This document shows positions 14,852-29,500 of a stretch of 64,000 nucleotides of DNA, piece by piece. Source of the stretch: an uncultured Gemmatimonadales bacterium. Lineage in GTDB: Bacteria; Gemmatimonadota; Gemmatimonadetes; Gemmatimonadales; GWC2-71-9. The translations under genes and the position numbers were made by a program. Under the pieces are notes generated by a model, which worked only from the letters and a program-made list of their open reading frames with translations, did not search any database and was not told the origin of the DNA. Within the stretch, counting starts at the first letter, position 1; each line of letters opens with the position of its first letter. Location of the stretch: the NCBI GenBank assembly GCA_963825055.1, contig CAWGSK010000013.1, positions 64,001 through 128,000 on the forward strand, written 5' to 3'.

Positions 14852-17389
14852 GTGACTTCTGTACTAGGAATCCTGCTCGCCCTGCAGACGACGGCCGCAC
14901 CGCCACCACCGGCGGCGGCCCCAACCACCATCGTGCGCGCCACACTCGTGCAGACGGCGCCCGTCATTGACGGCCGGGACAACGACTCGATCTGGTCCAT
15001 CACCCCGCCGATTACCGGCTTCCTGGAATCGCGCCCGACCGAGGGTGCCCCGCCCCGCCTCGAAACCGAGGCGCGGGTGGCCTACGATGCCCGGAACCTG
15101 TACGTGTTCGTCCGCGCCTTCGACCCGCATCCCGACAGCATCGTGCGCCAGTTGGGGCGCCGGGACGACTACACCGCCAGCGACCGGATCATCCTGATGC
15201 TGGATTCCTACCATGATCGCAGGACCGGCTACGAGTTCGCCGTGAACCCCGCGGGCGTGAAGGCGGACTACGCCATCTTCAACGACGGCGATGAGGACCG
15301 GGCCTGGGATGCGATCTGGGATGTTTCGACCCGGGTGGATTCGCTCGGCTGGACGGCCGAGTACCGCATCCCGCTCTCCCAGTTGCGGTACAACGCCGGC
15401 GGCGACGGGACCTTCGGGATTCTCATCTGGCGGGACATCCAGCGCTATACCGCGGTGATGACGTGGCCCCTCTACCGTCCTTCACGCTCCGGGTTCACCT
15501 CGCAGTTCGGGGAGCTGACCGGCCTGACCGGCCTGGGTGGCACCGGTCGCGCGGAGTTCACGCCCTATGTCGTGACCAAGAACGTGCAGGGACCGGCGTC
15601 CAGCGGATTCGGGCGCGACCAGAAGGTTACCGCGGGCGGCGACGTCAAGTACCGGCTCGCGTCCAACCTGCTGCTCAATGCCACCATCAACCCGGATTTC
15701 GGACAGGTCGAAGCCGATCCCTCCGAATTGAACCTCGGCGCGTTCGAAACCTTCTTCTCCGAGCGCCGGCCGTTCTTCGTGGAGGGGAAAGGGCTGTTCA
15801 CCTTCAGCGTCAACTGCGTCATCGTGGTGGACTGCAATACGGGCGAGGGCCTCTTCTATTCCCGCCGGATCGGGCGCTCACCCCAGCTCGCCCCGGTCTA
15901 CGGGAACGATGCGTCGGCCAGCGCGACGCGGATCCTGGGGGCGGCGAAAGCCACCGGCCGGCTGCCGGGGGGCTTCTCCCTCGGCGTGCTCGACGCCGTA
16001 ACCGACCATATCGACGGGCCGGGCGGCACCACGCTCGAGCCCGCCGCCAACTACGGGGTCGTCCGCGCCAATCAGGACTACAACGGCGGCGACGGAAGCA
16101 TCGGCTTCATGCTGACCGCGGTGAACCGCTTCACCGATTCCAGCAGCAGCCCTTACCTGCACCGGAGCGCCTACGCGGCGGGACTCGATGCCCGCCACCG
16201 GTTCAACGGGCGCTACGAGGTCTCCAGCTCATTTGACGTGAGCCGGGTGGCCGGGAGCGCCGAGGCGATTGCCCGGACCCAGCGGACATCGGTGCACCTG
16301 TACCAGCGACCCGACGATGATCTGGCGTTCGACTCGACCCGCACTTCCCTCACCGGGACGAACATGGAGTTCCGCTTCGCGAAGGTGGGCGGCAGGGTGC
16401 TGCGCTTCGAGACGGCATACCAGCGGCGGACGCCCGGTTTCGAGATCAACGATGTCGGATTCCTCCGCCAGGCGGACTTCCAGGCCTGGACCACCTGGGC
16501 TGCCCTCGCGTTCCGGACGCCCAACCGTGTGTTCCAGCAGCTCCGCTGGAACTTCAACAACTGGGAATACTGGAACGTGGCCGGGCTGCCGACCGAACGG
16601 GCGTTCAACACGAACGTCCACACCCAGTTCAACAACCGGTGGTGGTTCCACGGCGGCGGCACACTGGGACAGCTCGGGTCGACCTACTGCGACCGGTGCG
16701 CGCGCGGCGGTCCGGCCATCCGGCAGGACCCGTACATCGCCCCGTGGATGGGCATCGAGGGCGATGACCGCCACGCACTCGTGCCCTACCTCTGGGGGAA
16801 CTACTTCCTGGGAGACGGCGGCCGGTCCGAGCGCATCAGCCTCAGCCCGGAACTGGACTTCAAGGTCTCCACCCGGTTCACTACCTCCCTGAGCGTGGAC
16901 TACTCCCACAACCGGGATGACAACCAGTACTTCGGGACGTTTACCGGCGCGGGTGGGGCTTCGCATTACACCTTCGCCCATCTCGAGCAGGAGACGCTCG
17001 GCCTGACCTGGCGCCTCGGATACACCTTCACGCCGGAGGCCACGCTCCAGGTCTATGCCTCGCCGTTCGTCTCGCGAGGCACTTATTCGAATGTGCGGGA
17101 GCTGGCCAGTCCGCGCGCAGACGACTACGACGCCCGCTACCAGCCGTACGCTGACCCGGCCGTCGCCGCTGACCCCGGCGGGTTCAACTTCCGCCAGTTC
17201 CGGTCCAACATGGTGTTCCGGTGGGAGTACCGCCCGGGCTCGACCCTGTTCCTGGTGTGGAGCCAGGGACGGCAGGCCTTCGACCCGGTGGCGGGCGATC
17301 GGAGCTTCGGCGGAGACCTGAACGACCTGCTGGGGCGCCGCGCCGACGACACCTTCCTCGTGAAGCTCTCCTGGTGGTTCGGGCAATAG
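14852..17389 (+). CDS. Outer-membrane protein with N-terminal CBM9-like domain (DUF5916-like)
   Basis: APVIDG, FAVNPAGVKAD, WTAEYRIPLSQLRY, NPDFGQVEAD, ERRPFFVEG; aromatic beta-barrel C-terminus. Confidence 0.8.
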   Translation: MTSVLGILLALQTTAAPPPPAAAPTTIVRATLVQTAPVIDGRDNDSIWSITPPITGFLESRPTEGAPPRLETEARVAYDARNLYVFVRAFDPHPDSIVRQLGRRDDYTASDRIILMLDSYHDRRTGYEFAVNPAGVKADYAIFNDGDEDRAWDAIWDVSTRVDSLGWTAEYRIPLSQLRYNAGGDGTFGILIWRDIQRYTAVMTWPLYRPSRSGFTSQFGELTGLTGLGGTGRAEFTPYVVTKNVQGPASSGFGRDQKVTAGGDVKYRLASNLLLNATINPDFGQVEADPSELNLGAFETFFSERRPFFVEGKGLFTFSVNCVIVVDCNTGEGLFYSRRIGRSPQLAPVYGNDASASATRILGAAKATGRLPGGFSLGVLDAVTDHIDGPGGTTLEPAANYGVVRANQDYNGGDGSIGFMLTAVNRFTDSSSSPYLHRSAYAAGLDARHRFNGRYEVSSSFDVSRVAGSAEAIARTQRTSVHLYQRPDDDLAFDSTRTSLTGTNMEFRFAKVGGRVLRFETAYQRRTPGFEINDVGFLRQADFQAWTTWAALAFRTPNRVFQQLRWNFNNWEYWNVAGLPTERAFNTNVHTQFNNRWWFHGGGTLGQLGSTYCDRCARGGPAIRQDPYIAPWMGIEGDDRHALVPYLWGNYFLGDGGRSERISLSPELDFKVSTRFTTSLSVDYSHNRDDNQYFGTFTGAGGASHYTFAHLEQETLGLTWRLGYTFTPEATLQVYASPFVSRGTYSNVRELASPRADDYDARYQPYADPAVAADPGGFNFRQFRSNMVFRWEYRPGSTLFLVWSQGRQAFDPVAGDRSFGGDLNDLLGRRADDTFLVKLSWWFGQ

Positions 17390-17396
17390 GGTGCGG

Positions 17397-18068
17397 TCAG
17401 CGGAAGGTGACGAACTCCTCGAGCGACTTCTTCGTGATGACGGGGACCACCGCGTCGTCGGCGGGATACCCGACGACGAGCACGAGAAAGGCCCGGTCGG
17501 TGGGCGGGCGCTCGAGCAGGTCGTTCAGGAACCCCATCGGGCTCGGGGTATGCGTGAGCGTCGCCAGGCCCGCATGGTGCAGGGCCGTGATGAGCATCCC
17601 CATGGCGATGCCCACCGACTCACTCACGTAGTAATGCGGTACACGGTACCCTGCCGGGTCCAGGCCGTAGCGCTCACCGAAGACGACGACGAGAACGGGC
17701 GCGGTTTCGAGGTAGGGCTTGTACTCGTCCGTGCCGAGGTGCGCCAGCGCGTCCAGCCAGGTCTGGGGCGCCCGGCCGTGATAGAACGCATGCTCCTCCG
17801 CCTCCGCCGCCACCCGGATCCTCCGCTTGAGTCCCGGATCCGCGACCACCACAAAGTGCCACGGCTGCAGGTTGGCACCGCTCGGCGCGGTGCCCGCCGC
17901 CCGGAGGCATTCCTCCAGCACCTCCCGCGGGACCGGCCGGTCACTGAACTGGCGCACGCTCCGTCGCCGCTCCAGCTCCTCACGGAAGCCCTCCGCCCTG
18001 CGTCGCATCTCCTCCTCGGGGTACTCGCGCCAGGTGTCCAGCGGCCGGAACTTCGGTGCTGCGCTCAC
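17397..18068 (-). CDS. Nitroreductase-family flavoprotein, iodotyrosine deiodinase-like
   Basis: [59 protein letters not shown] overlaps the M28 peptidase stop. Confidence 0.85.
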
Positions 18069-20170
18069 CGGCCTGGCTCCAGGAGCGCGATCGCCGCCCG
18101 GACCCGCTCCGCCGCCCTGGACACGCCACGCGCCAGGTCGGTGACCTCGTCCCGCGCACGCGCCTGGTCCCGGTCCTCCTGGGCTTCGGCGATGCCCGGC
18201 AAGGCAATGTCCGCGTAGCCATTGTTCCGGTCTGACGCGTACAGCAGGTTGCGCCGCCAGGGCCGGCCGACCAGGCCCTCCGGACGGGACATCGCCGGCT
18301 CCACCTGGCGAAGCGTACCATTCACCCGGGCCAGCAACCCGCGAGGGACGCCAGCGGTAGCCAGTCGGGCGAGACGCGCCCGGTTGAGGGACTCCCCTGC
18401 GTCGGTAAGCAAGGTGATCGCGGCATCCAGCGAGTCGTACGGCAACGCCCACCCGAGGCTGTCGGCCGCACGGCGGGATGTCGCGGCCAGGTCCGCCAGG
18501 CGCCGGCCCAGGACCGCATAGTCGAAGGGCTCCACGTCCGCATTGGCCAGCCGGGACATTGCCACGGCGACCAGGCGACCGGCGGCAGCATGACTCAGGT
18601 AGCCGGGGTCGCCGAAACGCTCCATCCAGGTCCATGTGTCATAGGCCGCATGGTACACCCCGATCGGCCCTCCGAAGCCCATCTCCAGCGCCGGCATCCC
18701 CAGGTGGCTGTAGAACCCGCCGAAATCGCTCCCGCCTCCCATCACGCCGGGAGTGACGTCCGAACTGTCTCCGGGCTGGCGCGCGTCGCGCCAGGCCTGG
18801 TATACCGACATGGTATCGTCCGGCTGGCGCACCGCCCGCGTCACCTCGCGGATGAATGGATAGAGGGATGGGGTCCCGGCGGCCCCGAACCGGCGCCCGA
18901 ACGCGGACATGTCCTGGTTCAGGTAGGCTACCAGATGCTGCAGCAGGTCGTCCTCACGCGACTCCACCCATTCCGTGCTGCCCACCAGTCCCCACTCCTC
19001 CGCATCCCAGGTCGCGAAGATCACGGTCCGCCGCGGACGCCGGCCCTGGCGTGCCGCGGTTCCCATTGCGCGCGCAGCCTCGAGCAGGCTCACCGTGCCG
19101 CTGATGTTGTCCGCGGCGCCGGGACCCCAGGCATCGCGGTGCCCGCCGGCGATGACGATCTCGTCCGGCCAGTCGGTGCCCCGAAGCCGCCCGAAAGTGT
19201 TGGTGATGGTCTTCCAGCGTCGCTCCTCGGGCTCGAGCCACACCGCAACACGGACGCGTGTCGCCGAGTCACCGACGTGATACCGGAAGGGGAGTGCGCC
19301 CTGCCAGGGCTGCGGCACCGAGGGACCGCCAAGCTGCCCGAGAATGCGCGCGGCATTGCCGTATCCCAGCGGGATCACCGGGATGTGCGCGACGTCGAGG
19401 CTGTCCGGGGGGAGCCGGCGCGCGCCGGACACGGAGGACCACCCCGGTGTGGTCGGGTCCCCATCGGCGTTCAGGATGCTCCCGCGCTGTACCGCGTCGG
19501 GGCCGCGCATGGGGCCGTCGGGATAGACATCCCCACGGAAGTAGCCGTCATCCTGCGGGTCCGAGTAGAGTATCAGCCCAGCCGCCCCATGCGCTTCGGC
19601 CTCGCGCGCCTTGATGCCGCGGAAGCTGCGCCCGTAGCGCGCGATGACCACCCGGCCCTCCACCGGTACCCCGAGCCGCTCGAGTGCCTCGTAATCCTCC
19701 GCCAGTCCGTAGTTCACGTACACCACCGGCGCCGTCACGTCGCCTTCCCCGCTGGACCCGTTCATCGCCGGCCAGATTCCCGACTGCGTGGTGGGATCAT
19801 CCGGCAGCGCAGGCTCATCCAGGCGGAACCGCCTCGGGGCCGCCCCTTCGAGTTCCACCAGCTGCGAATCCGGATAGGGAAGCCAGACCCGGAACGACAC
19901 CCGACTGGTGTCGAGTCCCCAGGAGGCCATCTGCCGCAGCACGTATTCGGCCGTCCGCTGCTGCGCAGGGGTGCCGGCCACGTGCGCCTCGGCCGAGAGG
20001 GCGTGCGAGTGCGTCCGTGCGCTCGACGGATCGGGAACGGAGGTAAGCAGCGCTTCAATCTTCGACTGCTGCGCCCAGGTGGCAGGGGTGAATCCCGCCG
20101 GGCGGTCCTGCGCGACGGCGGGGACGGAGGACAGCACGAAGGCGGCAGCCAGCAGGCCGTACATGCGCAT
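18065..20170 (-). CDS. M28 peptidase, glutamate carboxypeptidase II-like (PA and TfR dimerisation domains)
   Basis: Signal peptide; [40 protein letters not shown]. Confidence 0.92.
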
Positions 20171-20229
20171 GCGTTGGTATCCTGTGGTGAGGGCGAAGCT
20201 GGAAGGAAATCAGGCCGGGGCCGAAATCG

Positions 20230-21312
20230 CTACCCCTCCGACTGCCGGGGGCGCCGCCCGAAGGTCATGAGTCGACGCAGTCGCCACGTATGGCGCCCGA
20301 CTGGATGCTCGGCGAGCTCACGCCAGCGCGCTGACGGGCGCGCCGGCCAGAACCGGGACGCGACACCATGCATCCACGCCGAGGGCGCATGCTGGAGCGC
20401 GAGTTGCGCGGCGATCGGTGCCCGTGCCCGGCGACGCTCGAGCCAGGTGCGGGTGCCCATCCATCGGCGAAGCGGGGCCTGGGTCCAGCCGCCCGGGCCG
20501 CGGATCCGTTCCGGGAGGCCGAGGCGCCGGAGATCGTCAGCGAGAATGGCGCCGAGGGGATGGTCGATCTCGGTGTCGCCGAGATGCAGGAGTACGTCGA
20601 GGAGGAGGATGGCCTGCCAGCCCCCGTGGCGGATGTAGTGCCGGATCAGCAGCTCGAGCTCGTGCGCCGGCGACGGAATCCACATCCCTTCGCCCCACGC
20701 CCGCCGGTGGGCGAGCATTTCGGCGGTCCCGGGAGACCCGGCCGAGGGCGGCTCGATCCGCCAGTGCACTTCGAGGATGTCATCCCAGCCGGGGATATAC
20801 GGACGCTGGAACCTGACATGGAACAACTCGCGCGACGGGGACGACCACGGCGAGTAGCCCCGGTCGGTCAGGAAGCGGGTGACCTCCTCCACCGATGCCC
20901 ACGGGACGAGAACATCGAGGTCGCGCGAAGGACGGATGGCACCGGAGCCGTACAGGCGCTCGGCCATCGGCGGGCCCTTCATGACCAGCCACGGAACTCC
21001 GGCGCCCTCGAGCAGGTCACGCATCTCGGTGAGCTGCGCGGCCCCGCGCTCCGCGGCGAACCCCGCCAGCCCGACCGCCCGGGCGATGTTGCGGTACGGT
21101 GTCTCCGGGAGGGAACGCAGGTCGGGACCGAGCAGTTGCGCGGCCAGGGGCGCCAGGCGGCTCACCTCGACGTCCACCGCGCCCGCTGCCCACTCCGCCG
21201 GTTCGGGCGAAGCAGCCGGGAGGCCCAGGGCGCGGTGAAGCGTCCAGACGAGGAACGGGTGTTCCCTCTTCAGTGGGCGGCGGCGGCCAGGCAACGTGCG
21301 ATCTCCTCCCAT
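20230..21312 (-). CDS. Nucleotidyltransferase family protein of the lasso cluster (start uncertain, possibly about 21273)
   Basis: KGPPMAERLY..RPSRDLDVLV, LEVHW. Confidence 0.8.
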   Translation of the reverse strand: MGGDRTLPGRRRPLKREHPFLVWTLHRALGLPAASPEPAEWAAGAVDVEVSRLAPLAAQLLGPDLRSLPETPYRNIARAVGLAGFAAERGAAQLTEMRDLLEGAGVPWLVMKGPPMAERLYGSGAIRPSRDLDVLVPWASVEEVTRFLTDRGYSPWSSPSRELFHVRFQRPYIPGWDDILEVHWRIEPPSAGSPGTAEMLAHRRAWGEGMWIPSPAHELELLIRHYIRHGGWQAILLLDVLLHLGDTEIDHPLGAILADDLRRLGLPERIRGPGGWTQAPLRRWMGTRTWLERRRARAPIAAQLALQHAPSAWMHGVASRFWPARPSARWRELAEHPVGRHTWRLRRLMTFGRRPRQSEG

Positions 21313-22136
21313 GCGTTCGACATCTGCTCCAGGTTCCCGGGCACGGTCAATCGCCAGACGGGCACGGCGGCGGCGAGCCCCCCGACCAGGTCGTGCCAGG
21401 CCGGGGTGGGCTCGGACTCCAGCCAGGAGAGGAATCCAGCATCAACCATGCCGGGGAGACGTGCAACCCCGCGCAGGGCTTCACACTGGACCTTCGAGCC
21501 CCTCTGGAGCAGGAACAGGCCGCGGAGGAGGCCCGGTTCCCCGGCCGGGAGGTCGTACCATCCCCGGCCGTCGGGAAGGACGAGCCTGGGCGACCAGTCC
21601 TGCGGGGCGAGCTCGGGGGGAACCCGCAGCGACCCCGGCAGAGGCAGGATCCCCGCTTTTCCGTCCAGGGCAAGGAGGTCATCCCCCCGGACAGGCCAGC
21701 CGTGTCTCGTGGCCAGCCCCGCGAGGGAGGACTTCCCACGCCCGGACGGGCCGGCGATCGCCACTGTCCCTCCCGGGGTTTCGAGCCCAGCCGCATGGAG
21801 CGGGTAGCATCCAGCGGTGGCGATGGTGAACGCCGTCAGCGGCCCGGTGAGCCGGGTCAGGTGCGCCGGCGAATGTGGATCATGGCCGGGGTCAATACTG
21901 AACCGGAGTCCGCCATCGAGACGGACCTGGTATCCGCACCCGTCCGGGTACCGCAGACCCCATCCATCCGGAAGGCGCCAGACCGCGGAGCGCCCCTGCG
22001 GCGTATCCGCATGGCGAACCGCCCGAGGATCCGGTGCGACGGCAGAACGCTCGATGATCGGAAGGGGGAGCCCAAGCGCCGCGGAAAGCGCGCACCACGC
22101 CGCCGACGGATCGGGCGGCGACGGGGCGAGAGGCAC
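21270..22136 (-). CDS. HPr-kinase-like lasso peptide kinase
   Basis: PLHAAG, Walker A GPSGRGKS, GDDLLAL; immediately downstream of the precursor. Confidence 0.8.
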   Translation of the reverse strand: MPLAPSPPDPSAAWCALSAALGLPLPIIERSAVAPDPRAVRHADTPQGRSAVWRLPDGWGLRYPDGCGYQVRLDGGLRFSIDPGHDPHSPAHLTRLTGPLTAFTIATAGCYPLHAAGLETPGGTVAIAGPSGRGKSSLAGLATRHGWPVRGDDLLALDGKAGILPLPGSLRVPPELAPQDWSPRLVLPDGRGWYDLPAGEPGLLRGLFLLQRGSKVQCEALRGVARLPGMVDAGFLSWLESEPTPAWHDLVGGLAAAVPVWRLTVPGNLEQMSNAWEEIARCLAAAAH

Positions 22137-22144
22137 GGAGGAAA

Positions 22145-22291
22145 TCAGCTGCCGAACGCTCCGTCGCTCACGTTGAGCCCGGCCCCACGGGTCAGGTCCT
22201 GGACCCGGCCCAGCGTTTCGAGCCGGGGGGGCTCGAACTCACGGCGGGGTTCGGGACGTTTGCTGTCAGGAGGACGGGACGTGTCTGTCAT
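22145..22291 (-). CDS. Lasso peptide precursor, 48 aa; predicted core GAGLNVSDGAFGS
   Basis: SD GGTGAGG before ATG; leader FEPPRLETLGRVQDLT fits (Y/F)xxPxLxxxGxxxxxT; Thr at -2; core G1...D8. Confidence 0.85.
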   Translation of the reverse strand: MTDTSRPPDSKRPEPRREFEPPRLETLGRVQDLTRGAGLNVSDGAFGS

Positions 22292-23696
22292 GGGCGACCT
22301 CACCAGGGGAATGGTGCACTTCCACGAAGTGTAGTATGCCGAGTCCACTCCATTGGGTCAAGAAATCGTCGTGCAGGTCAGCCGGCGTGATCCGCCGCGG
22401 AAGCCACGGGATCTCCAGCTGTTCCTGCAGCCGTTCCCAGTCATCCACCATCGCCTGCGCCTCGGACATCACCCGCTCCCTGATCCAGAGGGAAAGATCC
22501 GCCTTGTCCACCCGACGGACAACCGGCGAGGGTAGGTGCGGTGCGACGGCCTCGCGGAGCAGGGCGCGTGGGAGCCAGCGCGAACCTACCCGAGGACACC
22601 GGAACCCGGCGACGGCTTCGATGACCCCTCGATCCAGCATCGGCAGGGCGAGCTCGAGGCCCGCCCGGCGAACGGTGGCCGCGGCCATCCGGGTCCGCCA
22701 CGCCAGACGGGGATCAGCAAGCGTGTGACGGAGCGCCGCGTGCCGCCAGCTCCCCGCAGAGGCGGCGGCCCCTCCGTCGAGCCCGAGCCGGGACGGCCGC
22801 ATCGCGCTCAGGACACCCCGGCCGAGCGTGCGGAGTGCGCCGGCCCGCCGGCGGGCGAGACGGGCCCGGAGCGCGACGGCCGTACCGGCCAGGATCCGGC
22901 CACTCCTGAACAGGTCCACCTCCAGGCCCCGTTCCGCGAACACCTCATCGCCCCCGACACCCCACGCCATGCCCTGGCACCCCGCGCGCCGGGCCAGCGC
23001 GCCGGTGGCGGCGTGCACGGCCTCCATGGCGTCCACCAGGGGCGAATCTCCCCGGGCCATGGCTGCTGCGGACGCCGGCCAGAGCAGCAGCCCGGCGGCA
23101 TTCACGGTTGCGAGTTCAAGGCCGAGGTGCGCGGCGACGGCGTCCTGCCACTCGGACTCGTCGCAAGCCAGGCCGGGAAATCGTGCCGAGACGAGCAACG
23201 GAAGCGGCGCGGCCTCACGCCTCGCGGCCTCCGCCGCCGCGGCCGCGAGCGCTGACGAATCCAGGCCGCCGCTCAGTGAAACGGCCATCCGGCCCGTCGC
23301 AATCACGTGCCGCTGCATCGCCCCCACGAGCGCCTCCCATACCGATTCCGTTGCATCGCCGGGAACGGGAACGGACCACCACGTCATCGGGGAGCCGTGG
23401 GGCTGGCATTCACGCCCGCCTGGGACACAGGTCACGTCGCGGAAGGGGGACAGCCCGGTGAAGCGTAACGCGGCGAGATCCTCGAGCACGTCGAGGTCGG
23501 GAACGGCGCATGGGGTGAGTCGCGCGAGTCGTGCCGGGTCGAGCGCCAGATGGAGGTGGGGGCCGATGCTGCGCAGGCATGCGAGGGGATATACCGGGGC
23601 GGAACGCACGACCGGCCCCAGGGAACCATCGAGCCATCCGGGGTCCGCGCCTGACGCGAGCCCGGGGTCGTGGAGAACGATCCGGGCGGAGGTCAA
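22266..23696 (-). CDS. Asparagine-synthetase-like lasso cyclase (C protein)
   Basis: SLSGGLDSS PP-loop, GVGGDEVF, PMLDR, LLREAV..LP..VVRR.DK; degenerate N-terminal amidotransferase part; TTG overlaps the RRE stop. Confidence 0.85.
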   Translation of the reverse strand: MTSARIVLHDPGLASGADPGWLDGSLGPVVRSAPVYPLACLRSIGPHLHLALDPARLARLTPCAVPDLDVLEDLAALRFTGLSPFRDVTCVPGGRECQPHGSPMTWWSVPVPGDATESVWEALVGAMQRHVIATGRMAVSLSGGLDSSALAAAAAEAARREAAPLPLLVSARFPGLACDESEWQDAVAAHLGLELATVNAAGLLLWPASAAAMARGDSPLVDAMEAVHAATGALARRAGCQGMAWGVGGDEVFAERGLEVDLFRSGRILAGTAVALRARLARRRAGALRTLGRGVLSAMRPSRLGLDGGAAASAGSWRHAALRHTLADPRLAWRTRMAAATVRRAGLELALPMLDRGVIEAVAGFRCPRVGSRWLPRALLREAVAPHLPSPVVRRVDKADLSLWIRERVMSEAQAMVDDWERLQEQLEIPWLPRRITPADLHDDFLTQWSGLGILHFVEVHHSPGEVAHDRHVPSS

Positions 23697-23983
23697 CGGG
23701 GCGCCGCCCGGTGGAGAAGCCCCTGCTCCACCAGGCTACGGACAATGCCGGTCAGCATCTCCCAGCGGGCGTGGCCGTCGACCGGCCACGCCGCCAGGCC
23801 CCGGTCCACCTCGCCCAGGTCCTCGCCACGCGCGAGCGCGGCCCAGACTTCTGCGCCGGACCGGTTCAGGCTGTAGTAGGTCCCGGCATCGAGATCGAGG
23901 AGGACCAGCTCGTCGTCCAGTTCCCGGCTGCGCACCGCGGGAGCCGGCACGAACCGGTCCCCGCGCGCAAGGGGTTCCGGCAT
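23693..23983 (-). CDS. PqqD-family RiPP recognition element (lasso B1)
   Basis: SRELDDELVLLDLDAGTYYSLNRSGAEVW, 96 aa. Confidence 0.9.
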   Translation of the reverse strand: MPEPLARGDRFVPAPAVRSRELDDELVLLDLDAGTYYSLNRSGAEVWAALARGEDLGEVDRGLAAWPVDGHARWEMLTGIVRSLVEQGLLHRAAPR

Positions 23984-23987
23984 GATG

Positions 23988-25490
23988 TCAGGGAATCTGG
24001 CCGGTGACGTCCCAGATCATCAAGGCCGGGCTGGAGGGATTCTTCGCGCCGAACACATACACCCGCCCCCCGATGTACCCGAAGGTGGCCGTGTGAATCC
24101 CTGTCGGGACCATGTAGGACGTGATCCGCGTCGGGCGGAGCGGATCGGCCAGGTCATACAGGTAGATCCCCGAGCCGGTGCCGTTTTCACCGCTGAAGAG
24201 CAGCATCCGGCCATCACGCGACACCTCGACATCGCTGATGGTGATGATGCCGGAGGTGAGGATCGAGTCCGCAAGGGTCGGCGCGCCGGTGGCATCCAGC
24301 TGCCAGATCTTGAGTGCGTTGCCCGAATTCGATGGCCCGCCCGACGCGCGCAGTCTCCAGGTCCCCGTGTAGGCCACTCCGCCGTGCACCCAGAGGTCGG
24401 ACGTGAACCGCTCGGGCACGTTGCCACCGCCAGCCACCCTGGAGAGCACCCCGCCGTTCGACGACAGCTGGTAGAGTCCGTTCAGCATGTCCGTGGCGTA
24501 GACCGAGCCGTTGTATTCCTGCACGCCCCAGACGTAGGTGCTGTCAGGATTCGGGGGGAAAAAGCTCAGTACCCTGCTGTTCAGGCTCCCACTCAGGACG
24601 CCGGAGATATCCAGCGCGAGCACCCCGCCATTGTAGTAGGCGGCATAGAGGATTTCCGCCTGCTCGTCCACCCAGAAGTTGTGCGTGCCGAATCCGCTGC
24701 GATGGAACGTCGCGACCTGGACCGGCTTCCGCAGGTCGGTCACGTCCAGGACGAAAATGTCACCCGACGCCGCGGTACCGATGACGCCCGGACCCTCCTG
24801 TCCGAGGAAGAGGTACTTCTTCTCCCCGGTGTTGGGATTGTGGAACCACCACGAATTGTGCACCGCGCCGCCGCTCACCCCGACCGTACCCGCGAGCACG
24901 GGGGTCGAGGGACTTCCGCCCACGATACCGTTGCCGACGTCGTAGATCCGCATGCCGCTGTTCCACGCGCTCACGAACGCGAGGCCATCGCGCACGAAGG
25001 TGTCGTGGATGCCGTAGTTGGGCGGGATGGCGACCTGTGCGACAAGGACAGGCCCGGTGGTCCCCACCGACGTGACCGTGAAGCTCACGGCGGTCATGGT
25101 GGCATCGGTATTCGCCAGCGACGGCGCGCTCGCCTGGACCTTGCTGGTCAGGGTTCCCGTGCCAAGGCGCACCGTCATGTATGCCTTCCCGTCGGCCCCG
25201 GTGCTGGACTGGCTCGAGTCGACCGTCGCGTTCCCCGAGGTCACGCTCCACTGGACCGGTACACCGGCGAGCGGCGTGCCGGAGGTGTCGCGCGCCAGTG
25301 CGGCCAGCGGGGTGGGAAGCACTGCTGCTTCCGGACCCTTCTGGTGGTTTCCTCCTCCGATCGACAGCACCTGGCCGCTTCCGGCCGGGGACGGCGGTTG
25401 CGAGGGGTCGTTCGGGCCGGTGGCTGGTGCATCCGACCTGCACGCGGTGACAACCCCGAGCAGGACGAGCGGAAGGAAGGCATGTCGCAT
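23988..25490 (-). CDS. Lipoprotein with Ig-like domain and LVIVD-type beta-propeller repeats
   Basis: Lipobox VTAC; GGNHQ Ig-like segment; repeated MRIYDV/IFVLDV/VLALDI/IYLYDL motifs. Confidence 0.8.
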   Translation of the reverse strand: MRHAFLPLVLLGVVTACRSDAPATGPNDPSQPPSPAGSGQVLSIGGGNHQKGPEAAVLPTPLAALARDTSGTPLAGVPVQWSVTSGNATVDSSQSSTGADGKAYMTVRLGTGTLTSKVQASAPSLANTDATMTAVSFTVTSVGTTGPVLVAQVAIPPNYGIHDTFVRDGLAFVSAWNSGMRIYDVGNGIVGGSPSTPVLAGTVGVSGGAVHNSWWFHNPNTGEKKYLFLGQEGPGVIGTAASGDIFVLDVTDLRKPVQVATFHRSGFGTHNFWVDEQAEILYAAYYNGGVLALDISGVLSGSLNSRVLSFFPPNPDSTYVWGVQEYNGSVYATDMLNGLYQLSSNGGVLSRVAGGGNVPERFTSDLWVHGGVAYTGTWRLRASGGPSNSGNALKIWQLDATGAPTLADSILTSGIITISDVEVSRDGRMLLFSGENGTGSGIYLYDLADPLRPTRITSYMVPTGIHTATFGYIGGRVYVFGAKNPSSPALMIWDVTGQIP

Positions 25491-25509
25491 TCGTGGCACG
25501 GAAGCCCCG

Positions 25510-26754
25510 TCAGTGGTGAGTCGGTGAGGGCGAGAGCAGGCCGTAACGACCCATGCGGTGCATCGGGCCGCCGGCGGTCAGGCGGACGCCAAGCGTGAGC
25601 GCCTCGAACGACTCCCGGCCATACAGCCCCTCAACCGTAAAGACGCCGCCCCCGACCTTCCGTGCACGCCCGAGGGAGACCTCGCCGAACGGCTCCGCCG
25701 CGAGCCAGGACAGCGGTTCGAAACGAAAGCCATAGCCGACCGTGTGGATGGTCCACCGGCTGGTCCCGAGAATGGAGTTCTCCCGGTGGGGGCGGAGCGA
25801 GCGGAACAGGTCGGCGGTCCGCTCCTCCTCGGGACGCGAGGTACGCTCAAACCGGTACCAGGCCTGGTGCCGGCCCGGGCTCACCGCCGCCTCGACCAGC
25901 ACCGTGTGAAAGACGAAGAAGCCGTTGAGCTCCGAGTTGCGGGCCCACTCGGCCATGGCGTACACCGGCACGCCGAGCGCCGGACCCTTCCAGCGCCCCG
26001 AGAGGCTCCACTTGCCCTGGGTGCTGCCCGCCCCCGGGCGATGCTCGGGAGACTTCACCTCCGCGTGCGATCCCTGCAGCTCCAGGCCCGTGACCGGTTG
26101 CACCAGCAGCCTGGCGGACCAGGAGTCCCCGAATCGCTCCAAGCTGGGCCATTGCCCGGGCCGCTCCGGTTCATCGCCGTTGAACAGCCCCGCCTCGAGC
26201 GACAGCGGTCCCAGGCCGACGGCCGCAATCGCGACCGCACGCTCCAGAATCTGGCTCCAGTGGTGGTTCACCGGATACCGGAGCACGGGGCGGTTCATCG
26301 GGTCGTCCGTCCCGTACGGCGCGAACCCTTTCCCCACCGTAACGGAAGTGTGGAAGGGGCCCTGGCGGTTGCCGAACGGGTCCACGAGGCTCGCCAGCAG
26401 TTCGTGCACGTAGGTGTGCGGGTGGCGGCGGTCGACGAATCCCTCGCCCCAGATGCCGGGATCGAGCTCGCCGCCGGGCATGGTCCAGCCCTCGGCGTTC
26501 CCGGTGGCGGTGAAGCGGAGCCGCCCCCCGAGGACCCCGGCGTGCAGCATGAGGACGGGCTGCACGACCCTGATCTCGTCCAGCGCGCGGCCACCGGGTA
26601 TCGGATTGACCCGGGTCCAGGACGGCACGGCCTGGGCCCGCACGCGAAACCAGGCGTCAGGCGCCTGGGCGCTCGCCGGAGGCGACGTCAGGACCAGGGC
26701 CAGAAGTGCGACTGGCAGGCCGGCCGGGTGGGGGCGCGGCAGGAGGGGGGGCAT
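25510..26754 (-). CDS. Hypothetical outer-membrane beta-barrel protein
   Basis: Signal peptide (ASAQ); amphipathic strands; His-rich DRRHPHTYVHE and VNHHWSQ. Confidence 0.65.
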   Translation of the reverse strand: MPPLLPRPHPAGLPVALLALVLTSPPASAQAPDAWFRVRAQAVPSWTRVNPIPGGRALDEIRVVQPVLMLHAGVLGGRLRFTATGNAEGWTMPGGELDPGIWGEGFVDRRHPHTYVHELLASLVDPFGNRQGPFHTSVTVGKGFAPYGTDDPMNRPVLRYPVNHHWSQILERAVAIAAVGLGPLSLEAGLFNGDEPERPGQWPSLERFGDSWSARLLVQPVTGLELQGSHAEVKSPEHRPGAGSTQGKWSLSGRWKGPALGVPVYAMAEWARNSELNGFFVFHTVLVEAAVSPGRHQAWYRFERTSRPEEERTADLFRSLRPHRENSILGTSRWTIHTVGYGFRFEPLSWLAAEPFGEVSLGRARKVGGGVFTVEGLYGRESFEALTLGVRLTAGGPMHRMGRYGLLSPSPTHH

Positions 26755-26830
26755 CGTGACTCCGGAGTCCGGGAGGGGCGACATTCCCTCGTTCGGACGC
26801 CGCGCCGGCCCCGGGTTGCACAGGGCGACG

Positions 26831-27577
26831 TTACCTGGTGGTCACCGACGCCTTGAGGTAGTCCCGGTTCATCCGCGCGATGACGTCCAGCGGGATCACT
26901 TTCGGACAGGCCGCTGTGCATTCACCATGGTTGGTGCATCCGCCGAAATGTTCCAGGTCCATCCGGGTGATCATCTCCAGGGCACGCCGGTCCCGCTCCG
27001 CCTGGCCGTGGGGCAGCCGGCCGAGGTGCGAGATCTTGGCGCCGGTGAAGAGCATCGCGGAGGCGTTGGGGCAAGCGGCCACGCAGGCACCGCAGCCGAT
27101 GCAGGCCGCGGCGTCCATCGCCTCCTCGGCCACGTCCTTGGGCACCGGGATGGTGTTGGCGTCCGGGGCCGACCCGGTGGAGATGCTGACATAGCCGCCG
27201 GCCTCGATGATCCGGTCCAGCGCGCTCCGGTTCACGACCAGGTCCCGGACGACCGGGAAGGCGCGCGCCCGCCACGGCTCGATGACGATCCGGTCGCCGT
27301 CCCTGAAGCTTCGCATGTGCAGCTGGCAGGTTGCGGTGCCGGGCATCGGGCCATGGGCCATGCCGTTGATCATCATGCCGCAGGAGCCGCAGATCCCCTC
27401 GCGGCAATCGTGGTCGAACGCAATGGGCTCCTCGCCACGCTCGATCAGCCCCTCGTTCACGACGTCGAGCATCTCGAGGAATGACATCTCGGGACTGATG
27501 TCAGTGGCCTCGTACGTGACCATGCGGCCCTGGTCGCCCGGGCCGGCCTGTCGCCAGACGTGCAGCGTGAGCTTCAT
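26831..27577 (-). CDS. sdhB: Succinate dehydrogenase/fumarate reductase iron-sulfur subunit
   Basis: [33 protein letters not shown]. Confidence 0.96.
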
Positions 27578-27586
27578 GCGTCCGCC

Positions 27587-29500
27587 CTACTTGTAGCTGC
27601 GCTGGGCGAGGGGCACGTACTCGAAGTCGAGCGGCTCCTTTTCCAGCATCGGTTCGCGGTCGTCGCCCTGGTACATCCAGGCGGCGACGTAGGAAAACTC
27701 GTCGTCCTTCCGTTTGGCCTCCCCGTCGGGAGTCTGGCTCTCGACGCGGAAGTGGCCACCGGCCGACTCGGTCCGGTGCAGCGCGTCCCGGCACATCAAC
27801 TCGCCCAGTTCGAGGAAGTCCGCGACCCGCCCGGCCTTCTCCAGCGACTGGTTGAGGGTCTCGCCACTCCCGAGCACTCGCACGTCGCGCCAGAACTCGG
27901 CGCGGAGGGCCGGGATCTTCTCGAGCGCGGTCCGGAGGCCCGCCTCCGAGCGCGCCATGCCGCAGTACTCCCACATGACGTGCCCGAGTTCGCGGTGGAA
28001 GGCGTCCACCGTCCGGGAGCCGTTGACGTCGAGCAGGCGGTGGACGCGGCCCTCGACGTCCCGCACCGCAGCCGCCGCGGCGTCAGTCTCGGGCCCCAGG
28101 TTGTCCGGCCGGTGCGCAGCGAGGAAGTTGCCGATGGTGTACGGCAGGATGAAGTAGCCGTCGGCCAGTCCCTGCATGAGGGCGCTGGCGCCGAGCCGGT
28201 TGGCGCCGTGGTCGGAGAAGTTTGCCTCGCCGATCACGAACAGGCCGGGAATGGTGCTCTGGAGGTTGTAGTCGACCCAGAGCCCGCCCATGGTGTAGTG
28301 CACCGCGGGGTAGATCCGCATGGGCACTGCGTAGGGGTTTTCCGCGGTGATCCGCTCGTACATCTCGAACAGGTTGCCGTAGCGCTCGGCGATCACGTCG
28401 CGGCCGACCCGGCGGATCGCGTCGCCGAAGTCGAGGTACACGCCCCGCCCGGTCTCCCCCACCCCGCGCCCCTCGTCGCAGACTTCCTTCGCCGCGCGCG
28501 ACGCGATGTCCCGCGGCGCGAGGTTCCCGAAGCTGGGGTACTTCCGCTCCAGGTAGTAATCGCGGTCGGACTCCGGGATGGCGGTGGGCGGACGGTGATC
28601 GTCTGCGCGCTTCGGCACCCAGACCCGGCCGTCGTTCCGGAGCGACTCGCTCATCAGCGTCAGCTTCGACTGGTATTCGCCGGACACCGGGATGCAGGTG
28701 GGATGGATCTGGGTGTAGCACGGGTTCGCGAAGGCGGCGCCGCGCTTGTAGGCGCGCCAGATGGCCGTGGCGTTGCTGCCCTTGGCGTTGGTCGAGAGGT
28801 AGAAGACGTTGCCGTAGCCGCCGGTGCCCAGCACCACGGCGTCGGCCATGTGCACGTCCACCGCCCCCGTCACCAGATTCCGCGTGACAATGCCGCGCGC
28901 CCGGCCGTCCACCACGACCAGGTCCAGCATCTCCGTGCGGGGGAACATCGTCACCTTGCCCGCCCGGATCTGGCGTTCCAGCGCCTGGTAGGCGCCCAGC
29001 AGGAGCTGCTGGCCCGTCTGCCCGCGCGCGTAGAACGTGCGGGAAACCTGGGCGCCGCCGAAGGACCGGTTGGCCAGGGTCCCACCGTACTCGCGGGCGA
29101 ACGGCACGCCCTGCGCCACGCACTGGTCGATGATGTTGACGCTGACCTGGGCGAGACGGTACACGTTGGCCTCACGGCTCCGGAAATCCCCCCCCTTCAC
29201 CGTGTCGTAGAACAGGCGGTAGATGCTGTCCCCGTCGTTCTGGTAGTTCTTGGCGGCGTTGATCCCGCCCTGGGCCGCAATGCTGTGGGCGCGACGGGGG
29301 GAGTCCTGGAAGCAGAAGCACTTGACGTTGTAGCCCAGCTCCCCGAGCGTGGCGGCGGCGGACCCGCCCGCCAGCCCGGACCCGACCATGATCACGGTGT
29401 ATTTCCGCTTGTTCGCCGGGTTCACCAGCTTCATGTCGAAGCGGTGCTGGTCCCACTTCTCCTGGATCGGGCCTGCGGGAACGTTGCTCTTCAGTGCCAT
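27587..29500 (-). CDS. sdhA: Succinate dehydrogenase/fumarate reductase flavoprotein subunit
   Basis: [38 protein letters not shown]. Confidence 0.96.

Follow-up and report, generated by a model that had tools for sequence, protein, structure and literature searches.

A lasso-peptide-type gene cluster with a shortened cyclase and a distant B2 peptidase gene in a Gemmatimonadales bacterium

A stretch of 64,000 nucleotides (nt) from an uncultured Gemmatimonadales bacterium (assembly GCA_963825055.1, contig CAWGSK010000013.1, positions 64,001 to 128,000), here called the window, carries five tightly coupled genes of a predicted lasso-type pathway for a ribosomally synthesised and post-translationally modified peptide (RiPP). 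They lie on the minus strand at 20230-23983 and encode B1 (a RiPP recognition element, RRE), a short cyclase (C), a precursor peptide (A), a kinase (K) and a nucleotidyltransferase-fold enzyme (N), as listed in Table 1. The pathway is probably split between two loci, a B2 peptidase encoded on another contig acting in trans, and the product would be an 8-residue macrolactam with a 5-residue tail that is phosphorylated and possibly glycosylated on Ser13. An earlier note, made from the sequence alone, had described the five genes and read them as a lasso-type RiPP cluster with a kinase and a nucleotidyltransferase. The genes were confirmed at the stated coordinates, and the evidence on C, A, K and N supports the assignment, the kinase being of the HprK fold by its model and the nucleotidyltransferase PsmN-like. 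The earlier note was silent on three features that shape the present interpretation, namely the missing B2 and exporter genes, the short N-terminus of the cyclase and the position of the sole B2 gene of the genome on another contig.

Gene organisation and conservation

The genes are joined by overlaps and one short gap: B1 and C overlap by 4 nt (TTGA), the start of C overlapping the stop of B1, C and A overlap by 26 nt, a gap of 8 nt lies between A and K, and K and N overlap by 43 nt. The precursor ATG has the sequence GGTGAGG 6 nt upstream. Neither a B2 peptidase gene (PF13471) nor a gene for the ABC exporter D was found in or beside the cluster among the open reading frames (ORFs) of 17000-28000 and in domain scans, so that the canonical lasso arrangement, with B2 alone or B2 and D in the cluster, is not seen here. 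The view in the earlier note that this gene set defines clusters of the paeninodin and pseudomycoidin type does not hold, since those clusters also contain B2 and D and since the cyclase is N-terminally shortened here.

Table 1. Features of the cluster and their coordinates in the window (aa, amino acids).
Feature	Coordinates	Strand	Basis
B1, PqqD-type RRE, 96 aa	23693..23983	minus	PF05402
C, short Asn-synthetase-like macrolactam synthetase (predicted lasso cyclase), 476 aa, TTG start	22266..23696	minus	PF00733
A, precursor peptide, 48 aa	22145..22291	minus	lasso leader and predicted 13-residue core GAGLNVSDGAFGS
K, HprK/PEPCK-fold P-loop kinase, 288 aa, predicted Ser13 kinase	21270..22136	minus	structure model, motif
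N, NTP_transf_5 nucleotidyltransferase-fold enzyme, 360 aa, predicted to decorate the phosphate	20230..21312	minus	PF14907
Weak promoter-like site in the 3' end of C, upstream of A	22333..22361	minus	sigma-70-like consensus match only

The genome that holds the window (G000) is of soil origin, comprises 35 contigs and is 87% complete. A search for sequencing runs that contain the stretch found five DNA runs from soil metagenomes and none of RNA. A profile of the short cyclase was run on 171 sampled genomes of the family, representing 78 genera (E <= 1e-40), and a short cyclase was found in six genomes belonging to four genera: G000, G365, G451, G477, G414 and G412. All six clusters follow sdhB, a porin-like gene and a Big_1 gene and have the order B1-C-A-K. 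Finding this gene order again in five other genomes, each time at the corresponding site, makes the grouping more than chance. An N orthologue is present in the clusters of G365, G451 and G414; N directly follows K in the window, G451 and G414 and comes after two inserted genes in G365, while the contig of G477 ends inside K. G412 has no N, and the distance from K to the following M28 peptidase gene is only 285 nt in that genome (locus L167, 9311-9596), where the precursor still ends in Ser. The earlier note had regarded a Gemmatimonadota host as probable, and this agrees with the two nearest loci, which are from Gemmatimonadales and Gemmatimonadota, one of them from the window genome's own family.

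The cyclase

C matched the Asn_synthase domain PF00733 with an E value of 9.5e-23 and carries the PP-loop SGGLDS at residue 142. It starts with MTSARIV, without the Cys2 nucleophile, and has no GATase Pfam domain; being Asn-synthetase-like and devoid of the glutaminase Cys, it has the hallmarks of a macrolactam synthetase. The best NCBIfam match was asn_synth_AEB (TIGR01536), at 54.5 bits against a cut-off of 267.1, and C does not therefore qualify as a true AsnB. In a tree of 39 rows from a quick IQ-TREE search, the deeper branches of which are weak, the six short cyclases formed one clade (SH-like approximate likelihood ratio test, SH-aLRT, 100) outside the AsnB clade (SH-aLRT 99). The latter consisted of 11 AsnB proteins from relatives' genomes, all starting with MCG, and P0010; the AsnB of G000, which is broken by a contig end, was left out, and one AsnB row was trimmed by 35 residues to its MCG start. 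Profile comparison by hhalign agreed with the tree, the short-cyclase profile scoring 303.9 against 12 cyclases encoded next to B1-B2 and 220.3 against 11 AsnB proteins. The earlier note had named grouping with true asparagine synthetases as the result that would overturn its reading. The tree, the hhalign scores and the lack of Cys2 and of a GATase domain all place C apart from these enzymes and nearer to cyclases of B1-B2 context.

In the same hhalign comparison, residue ~30 of the short cyclases aligned to residue ~134-144 of the cyclases in canonical context, which indicates that ~105-110 N-terminal residues are missing from C. A structure model of C (predicted local distance difference test, pLDDT, 82.1) resembles the folds of AsnB, beta-lactam synthetase and carbapenam synthetase. 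No PDB entry was matched by sequence with C at E <= 0.01, the profile matched nothing but AsnB and beta-lactam synthetase, and the sequence and structure matches of C in the PDB included no lasso cyclase by name. The short-cyclase subfamily is rare: among 1.84 billion representative proteins the profile found 13,686 matches at E <= 1e-3 and only 15 at E <= 1e-30. The full-length members among those 15 have 476-496 aa, and this length is kept across the four genera and the metagenome representatives.

More distant relatives of C, searched among the genomes of 185,579 species, sit in B1-B2-C...K-N clusters with lasso-type precursors. Their hosts include Nitrospira, Burkholderiales, Acidobacteriota, Planctomycetota and others, other Gemmatimonadales among them, and a small B2 profile found B2 in 26 of the 42 loci of C relatives. 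These canonical, uncharacterised clusters share all five protein families and the leader motif with the window cluster. They differ in that B2 stands between B1 and C, in that the cyclases have 610-650 aa and start with MSGIAG, and in that many precursors have Cys-Leu or Lys-Thr-x in place of Ser at the C-terminus.

Precursor and predicted product

Nine residues are invariant in the four aligned precursors: F19, P21, P22, L24, L27, G28, T34, D43 and S48. Relative to the predicted cut, F19, P22, L24 and T34 are F-17, P-14, L-12 and T-2, the canonical lasso leader spacing being Y/F(-17)-x-x-P(-14)-x-L(-12)...T(-2), and D43 and S48 are the ring Asp and the tail Ser. The core in the window has 13 residues with Gly1, Asp8 and the tail GAFGS, and ends in Ser13, so that the C-terminal Ser assumed in the earlier note is borne out. 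Homologous peptides were found between C and K in G365, G451, G477, G414 and G412, and the precursor is thus conserved in all five relatives, an outcome that the earlier note had set beforehand as a test of its reading. A small first residue and a ring Asp occur throughout, as Gly1 and Asp8 in the window and as Gly, Ala or Ser at position 1 with Asp9 in the five relatives. Three of these have cores of the form G-x-(G/S)-...-D9-(G/A)-x-F-G-S and the other two x-F-x-P-G-...-T-D9-F-T-x-x-S-F; altogether a C-terminal Ser is present in four of the six precursors. Cores that vary behind a fixed leader are what would be expected of a working RiPP family.

From these features the product is predicted to be an 8-residue macrolactam with a 5-residue tail, likely phosphorylated and possibly glycosylated on Ser13. 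The masses calculated by hand in the earlier note proved right, at 1132.515 Da for the cyclised core and 1212.481 Da for the phosphorylated form, and one additional hexose gives a computed mass of 1374.534 Da.

Threading of the 5-residue tail is doubtful, and we know of no characterised lasso peptide with a tail as short as this. A branched-cyclic, unthreaded lariat, in which the Gly/Ala-rich tail cannot be held in the 8-residue ring and the genes keep their roles otherwise, is a serious contender, although less likely than not. A core of only 13 residues with the tail GAFGS speaks for it, and so does pseudomycoidin, which was not threaded when made without K and N; the authors of that work speculate that the thread is held by the bulky groups at the C-terminus (available text of PMC6993621). 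By the same token, Phe11 and a phosphorylated or phosphoglycosylated Ser13 could act as plugs in the window peptide, and the tail Phe is kept in all six precursors.

Kinase, nucleotidyltransferase and recognition element

K has no Pfam match, and its only NCBIfam matches are weak ones in the P-loop region to HprK_rel_A/B. With 18.4 and 20.9 bits to TIGR04352 and TIGR04355 (HPr-rel-A / HprK-related), the cut-offs of which are 200, it does not belong to those families, and a PDB sequence search with K returned P-loop noise only. The fold was recognised from the structure model (pLDDT 92.8, predicted template modelling score, pTM, 0.90), for which Foldseek found phosphoenolpyruvate (PEP) carboxykinase with an E value of 1.2e-5 and HprK/P 1kkl_B with 6.1e-5 (TMt 0.53). 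Residues H114, G134, K135, S136, D152 and D153 are invariant in 14 K homologues. Lasso-tailoring kinases are described as having a catalytic His-Lys-Asp-Asp motif (available text of PMC9266682), and PsmK D158A/D159A is reported to be inactive (PMC6993621, seen in part). K keeps this motif, its Asp pair matching D158/D159 of PsmK.

N matched NTP_transf_5 (PF14907) with an E value of 1.1e-24 and has DLD at residues 131-133. PsmN is reported to be needed for the addition of one or two hexoses to the phosphate and to be inactive as D134A/D136A (in the parts of PMC6993621 that were available), and, judged by its place in the sequence, the DxD of N stands at the PsmN position. B1 has a PqqD-like RRE, scoring 30.5 bits with PF05402 (cut-off 23.4), and is 47-54% identical to B1 of three relatives. 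It also matched lasso_PqqD NF033530 (E 2.4e-8) and NF033536 (E 9.4e-6), both below the cut-offs of the models.

Kinases of this kind are not confined to the short-cyclase clusters. A sample of 401 genomes from the phylum contains 77 with HprK-like kinases, and 11 of the 29 non-own kinase loci have an N match within ~1.5 kb. In the canonical clusters of several phyla many precursors end in Cys-Leu (…MCL, …VCL, …TCL; loci L076, L079, L083, L085, L086, L088, L094 (Nitrospira), L091, L092, L093, L096 and L077), and a C-terminal Ser is therefore not universal beside an HprK-like kinase. At other kinase loci in Gemmatimonadota (L009-L023), precursor-like peptides have ends of the Lys-Thr-x type (…NLKT, …SKTS, …RKTR), a hint that the residue modified there could be a Thr close to the C-terminus.

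The B2 peptidase gene

G000 holds a single PF13471 match above the cut-off, at C9:103464-103871 and thus on another contig than the cluster. The protein has 136 aa and scored 76.9 bits with PF13471 and 68.9 bits with lasso_biosyn_B2 (NF033537, cut-off 33); together with its three orthologues it passes the latter model at 68.9-81.8 bits. Cys64 and His98 are invariant in the four aligned proteins (G000, G365, G451 and G477). The gene has an M48 peptidase gene on one side and a uracil-DNA glycosylase (UDG) gene on the other; the lipoprotein-like M48 gene has a stop that overlaps the start of this stand-alone B2 (G000:C9:103464-105326; L003 6462-8326), and the order M48-B2-UDG recurs in four relatives.

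The genome has one match each for PqqD, NTP_transf_5, the HprK-like kinase and PF13471, and one lasso-type cyclase besides one AsnB. Since each part was matched once, the lasso parts of the assembly amount to a single set divided between two loci. The same separation was found throughout the clade: B2 is in none of the six short-cyclase clusters, and every one of the six genomes carries a B2 homologue elsewhere, which in five of them (G000, G365, G451, G477 and G414) is flanked by the M48 and UDG genes. In G365, as in G000, this is the only B2, and neither genome has another lasso-type cyclase.

The site was also followed outside the clade. Among the UDG loci of 29 other genera, an M48 match lies within ~1.5 kb in three (G414, G023 and G409), and B2 stands between M48 and UDG only in G414; G023 and G409, which have no B2 there, are also without a short cyclase (best match 58.9 bits in G023, no match in G409). 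B2 homologues at E <= 1e-5 are present in 57 of the 171 family genomes, and seven of the nine best non-own B2 matches sit in ordinary B1-B2-N or K contexts.

Proposed pathway and alternatives

In the proposed split pathway, each step of which is read from homology and gene context, B1 would bind the leader via F-17, P-14 and L-12. K would then phosphorylate Ser13, the last residue, while the precursor is still linear; this order is suggested because the paeninodin kinase is reported to take the precursor, and not the threaded peptide, as its substrate (PMC9266682, in the text available). N may add a hexose or a nucleotide to the phosphate on Ser13, and cleavage after Thr(-2)-Arg(-1) would fall to the remote B2 together with B1. 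Finally, C would adenylate the side chain of Asp8 and join it to the amine of Gly1 in an isopeptide ring, giving a product expected at 1132.51 Da, at 1212.48 Da when phosphorylated and at 1374.53 Da with one hexose. That B2 is still used is suggested by the conserved Thr(-2), since this penultimate residue is said to matter for recognising and processing the leader (preprint 10.64898/2026.07.03.736388, seen in part).

Several results weigh against this proposal. With curated models, C scored 35.6 bits for the lasso cyclase (cut-off 525), B1 34.1 bits for the lasso PqqD (cut-off 70) and the leader 18.1 bits for lasso_leader_L3 NF033521, just below its cut-off of 19. Two of the six precursors end in Ser-Phe, and the cluster of G412 is without a nucleotidyltransferase gene. 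The B2 gene of G000 is translationally coupled to the M48 peptidase gene, and that of G412 lies, contrary to prediction, at another site with neither M48 nor UDG within 7.5 kb. B2 homologues also occur in 51 of the 165 family genomes that lack a short cyclase, so that the presence of B2 alone is not specific. PsmC is moreover reported to make pseudomycoidin when PsmB1 and PsmB2 are absent, both in E. coli and in B. subtilis (PMC6993621, in the portion available), and B2 may accordingly be dispensable. The pseudomycoidin precedent, the B2 site in G412 and the coupling of B2 to M48 weaken the trans-acting B2 step in particular.

These same three points favour a macrolactam made without a dedicated B2, in which housekeeping proteases would remove the leader, or the short C would take any free core, and the remote B2 would be a relic or have another role, for example with M48. 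A further precedent is provided by triculamin-type clusters, which have a truncated cyclase and are described as without B proteins in the part of the triculamin preprint that was available (10.64898/2026.07.03.736388). Such a pathway nevertheless appears unlikely to us. B1 and a canonical leader with its invariant Thr(-2) are kept in all six clusters, and the remote B2 is an intact protein whose Cys and His are conserved; all four examples tested pass the curated model. The remote gene is also the sole B2 in two genomes without another lasso-type cyclase, and none of the six short-cyclase genomes has lost B2.

A bolder form of the split pathway, speculative and in our judgement rather improbable, would make the short-cyclase clade an intermediate between canonical clusters and the B-less, triculamin-like ones. 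Loss of the N-terminal cyclase domain would have freed B2 and uncoupled cleavage from ring closure, and a Ser-linked phospho-sugar would plug a 13-residue mini-lasso. If this is true, the 5-residue tail could not stay threaded without the phospho-sugar plug.

That the cluster is a decaying, product-less remnant of a canonical lasso cluster seems very improbable. Decay would account for the missing B2 and D, the short cyclase and the loss of N in G412, but all five frames are open with the catalytic motifs SGGLDS, H-K-D-D and DxD intact, the cyclase is kept at its full short length across four genera and metagenome representatives, and the cores vary while the leader is fixed. We give hardly any credence to the genes not forming one RiPP pathway, with PqqD, kinase and nucleotidyltransferase as an HPr-rel-type system and C as an ordinary amidotransferase, for although K is weak to HprK_rel_A/B (18-21 bits against 200), the best NCBIfam match of C is asn_synth_AEB and pairs of kinase and NTP_transf_5 genes are common in the phylum, C has neither Cys2 nor a GATase domain and falls outside the AsnB clade, a lasso-type precursor lies between C and K in 6/6 clusters, the genes of the window cluster overlap, and the distant relatives of C sit in clusters with B1, B2, K, N and lasso-type precursors.

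Relation to known systems

Among characterised systems, the clusters of pseudomycoidin (psm, Bacillus pseudomycoides) and paeninodin (pade, Paenibacillus dendritiformis) have in common with the window a precursor with a C-terminal Ser, a split B1, an Asn-synthetase-like cyclase and an HprK-family kinase with an Asp-Asp metal site; psm also has an uncharacterised nucleotidyltransferase with a DxD motif. Both carry B2 and the ABC exporter D in the cluster, as stated in the available text of PMC6993621, whereas B2 and exporter are missing here, the cyclase is ~105-110 residues shorter at its N-terminus and the core has only 13 residues. Pseudomycoidin, given as ~2.6 kDa in the same text, has more than twice the 1.13 kDa predicted here. 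The hosts of psm and pade are Firmicutes, that of the window is a member of Gemmatimonadota.

The triculamin-type clusters of Streptomyces resemble the window cluster in having a truncated macrocyclase that lacks part of the inactive, GATase-like N-terminal domain, in having no B2 in the cluster and in being missed by rule-based mining, to follow the accessible part of the preprint (10.64898/2026.07.03.736388). They are described there as devoid of B1 and of a leader, with a follower peptide at the C-terminus instead, whereas B1, an N-terminal leader with Thr(-2) and a C-terminal core are present here and B2 is encoded elsewhere. The window cluster is thus not of the triculamin type, the truncated cyclase alone being common to both. 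Leader proteases that are likewise encoded away from the biosynthetic genes are known for lanthipeptides, which are another RiPP class with another protease family (PMC8960859, seen in part), and no report of an unclustered lasso B2 was found in a limited literature search.

The earlier note knew of no characterised example from this lineage. None was found in a limited literature search either, and the statement stands for characterised compounds; predicted lasso clusters in 29 marine Gemmatimonadota metagenome-assembled genomes are already in print (PMC11316326, in the part available), and the lineage is therefore new only with regard to a characterised compound.

Rule-based lasso mining expects B2 beside the cyclase, so that standard rules would likely miss this cluster, as has been described for B-less clusters in the available part of the triculamin preprint (10.64898/2026.07.03.736388). 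The clade offers a natural test of the physical coupling of B2 and cyclase and of the role of the inactive N-terminal cyclase domain. The 13-residue core is one of the smallest predicted lasso-type cores and has a predicted C-terminal phospho-decoration. It would make a compact case for bulky C-terminal groups that lock the thread, and the speculation of the pseudomycoidin authors (PMC6993621, in the text available) fits here.

Neighbouring genes and further observations

The cluster is flanked on one side by genes for an M28 peptidase and a nitroreductase and on the other by the Big_1/choice-of-anchor-B gene, the porin-like gene and sdhB. The Big_1/choice-of-anchor-B gene (25499..23988, minus) ends 4 nt before the B1 start. 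Its adjacency to B1 is kept in all six genomes, G477 having a DUF6174 gene between the two, and because of this conservation B1 may be co-transcribed with it. The sigma-70-like match within C was the single one in 17300-27700, where shuffled sequences averaged 0.4. The gene after N, at 18065-20170 of the window, encodes an M28/PA/TFR-dimer peptidase, which in G412 directly follows K.

Sulfatase-like genes beside the clusters of G365, G451 and G414 were considered as cluster members and set aside, since eight matches to the family lie at other places in G000 and the window cluster has none. Those of the relatives encode PF00884 membrane sulfatases in or just after the cluster (L034 8500-10778 in G365, L102 7968-11383 in G451 and L160 3850-5526 in G414), and in G000 PF00884 sulfatases are multi-copy, five to six of them standing in tandem on contig C34. 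A 162-aa ORF like the C-terminal half of the kinase is further present in G365, which in place of the M28 gene has an opposite-strand ORF of 668 aa after N that reads like a candidate M1-type peptidase.

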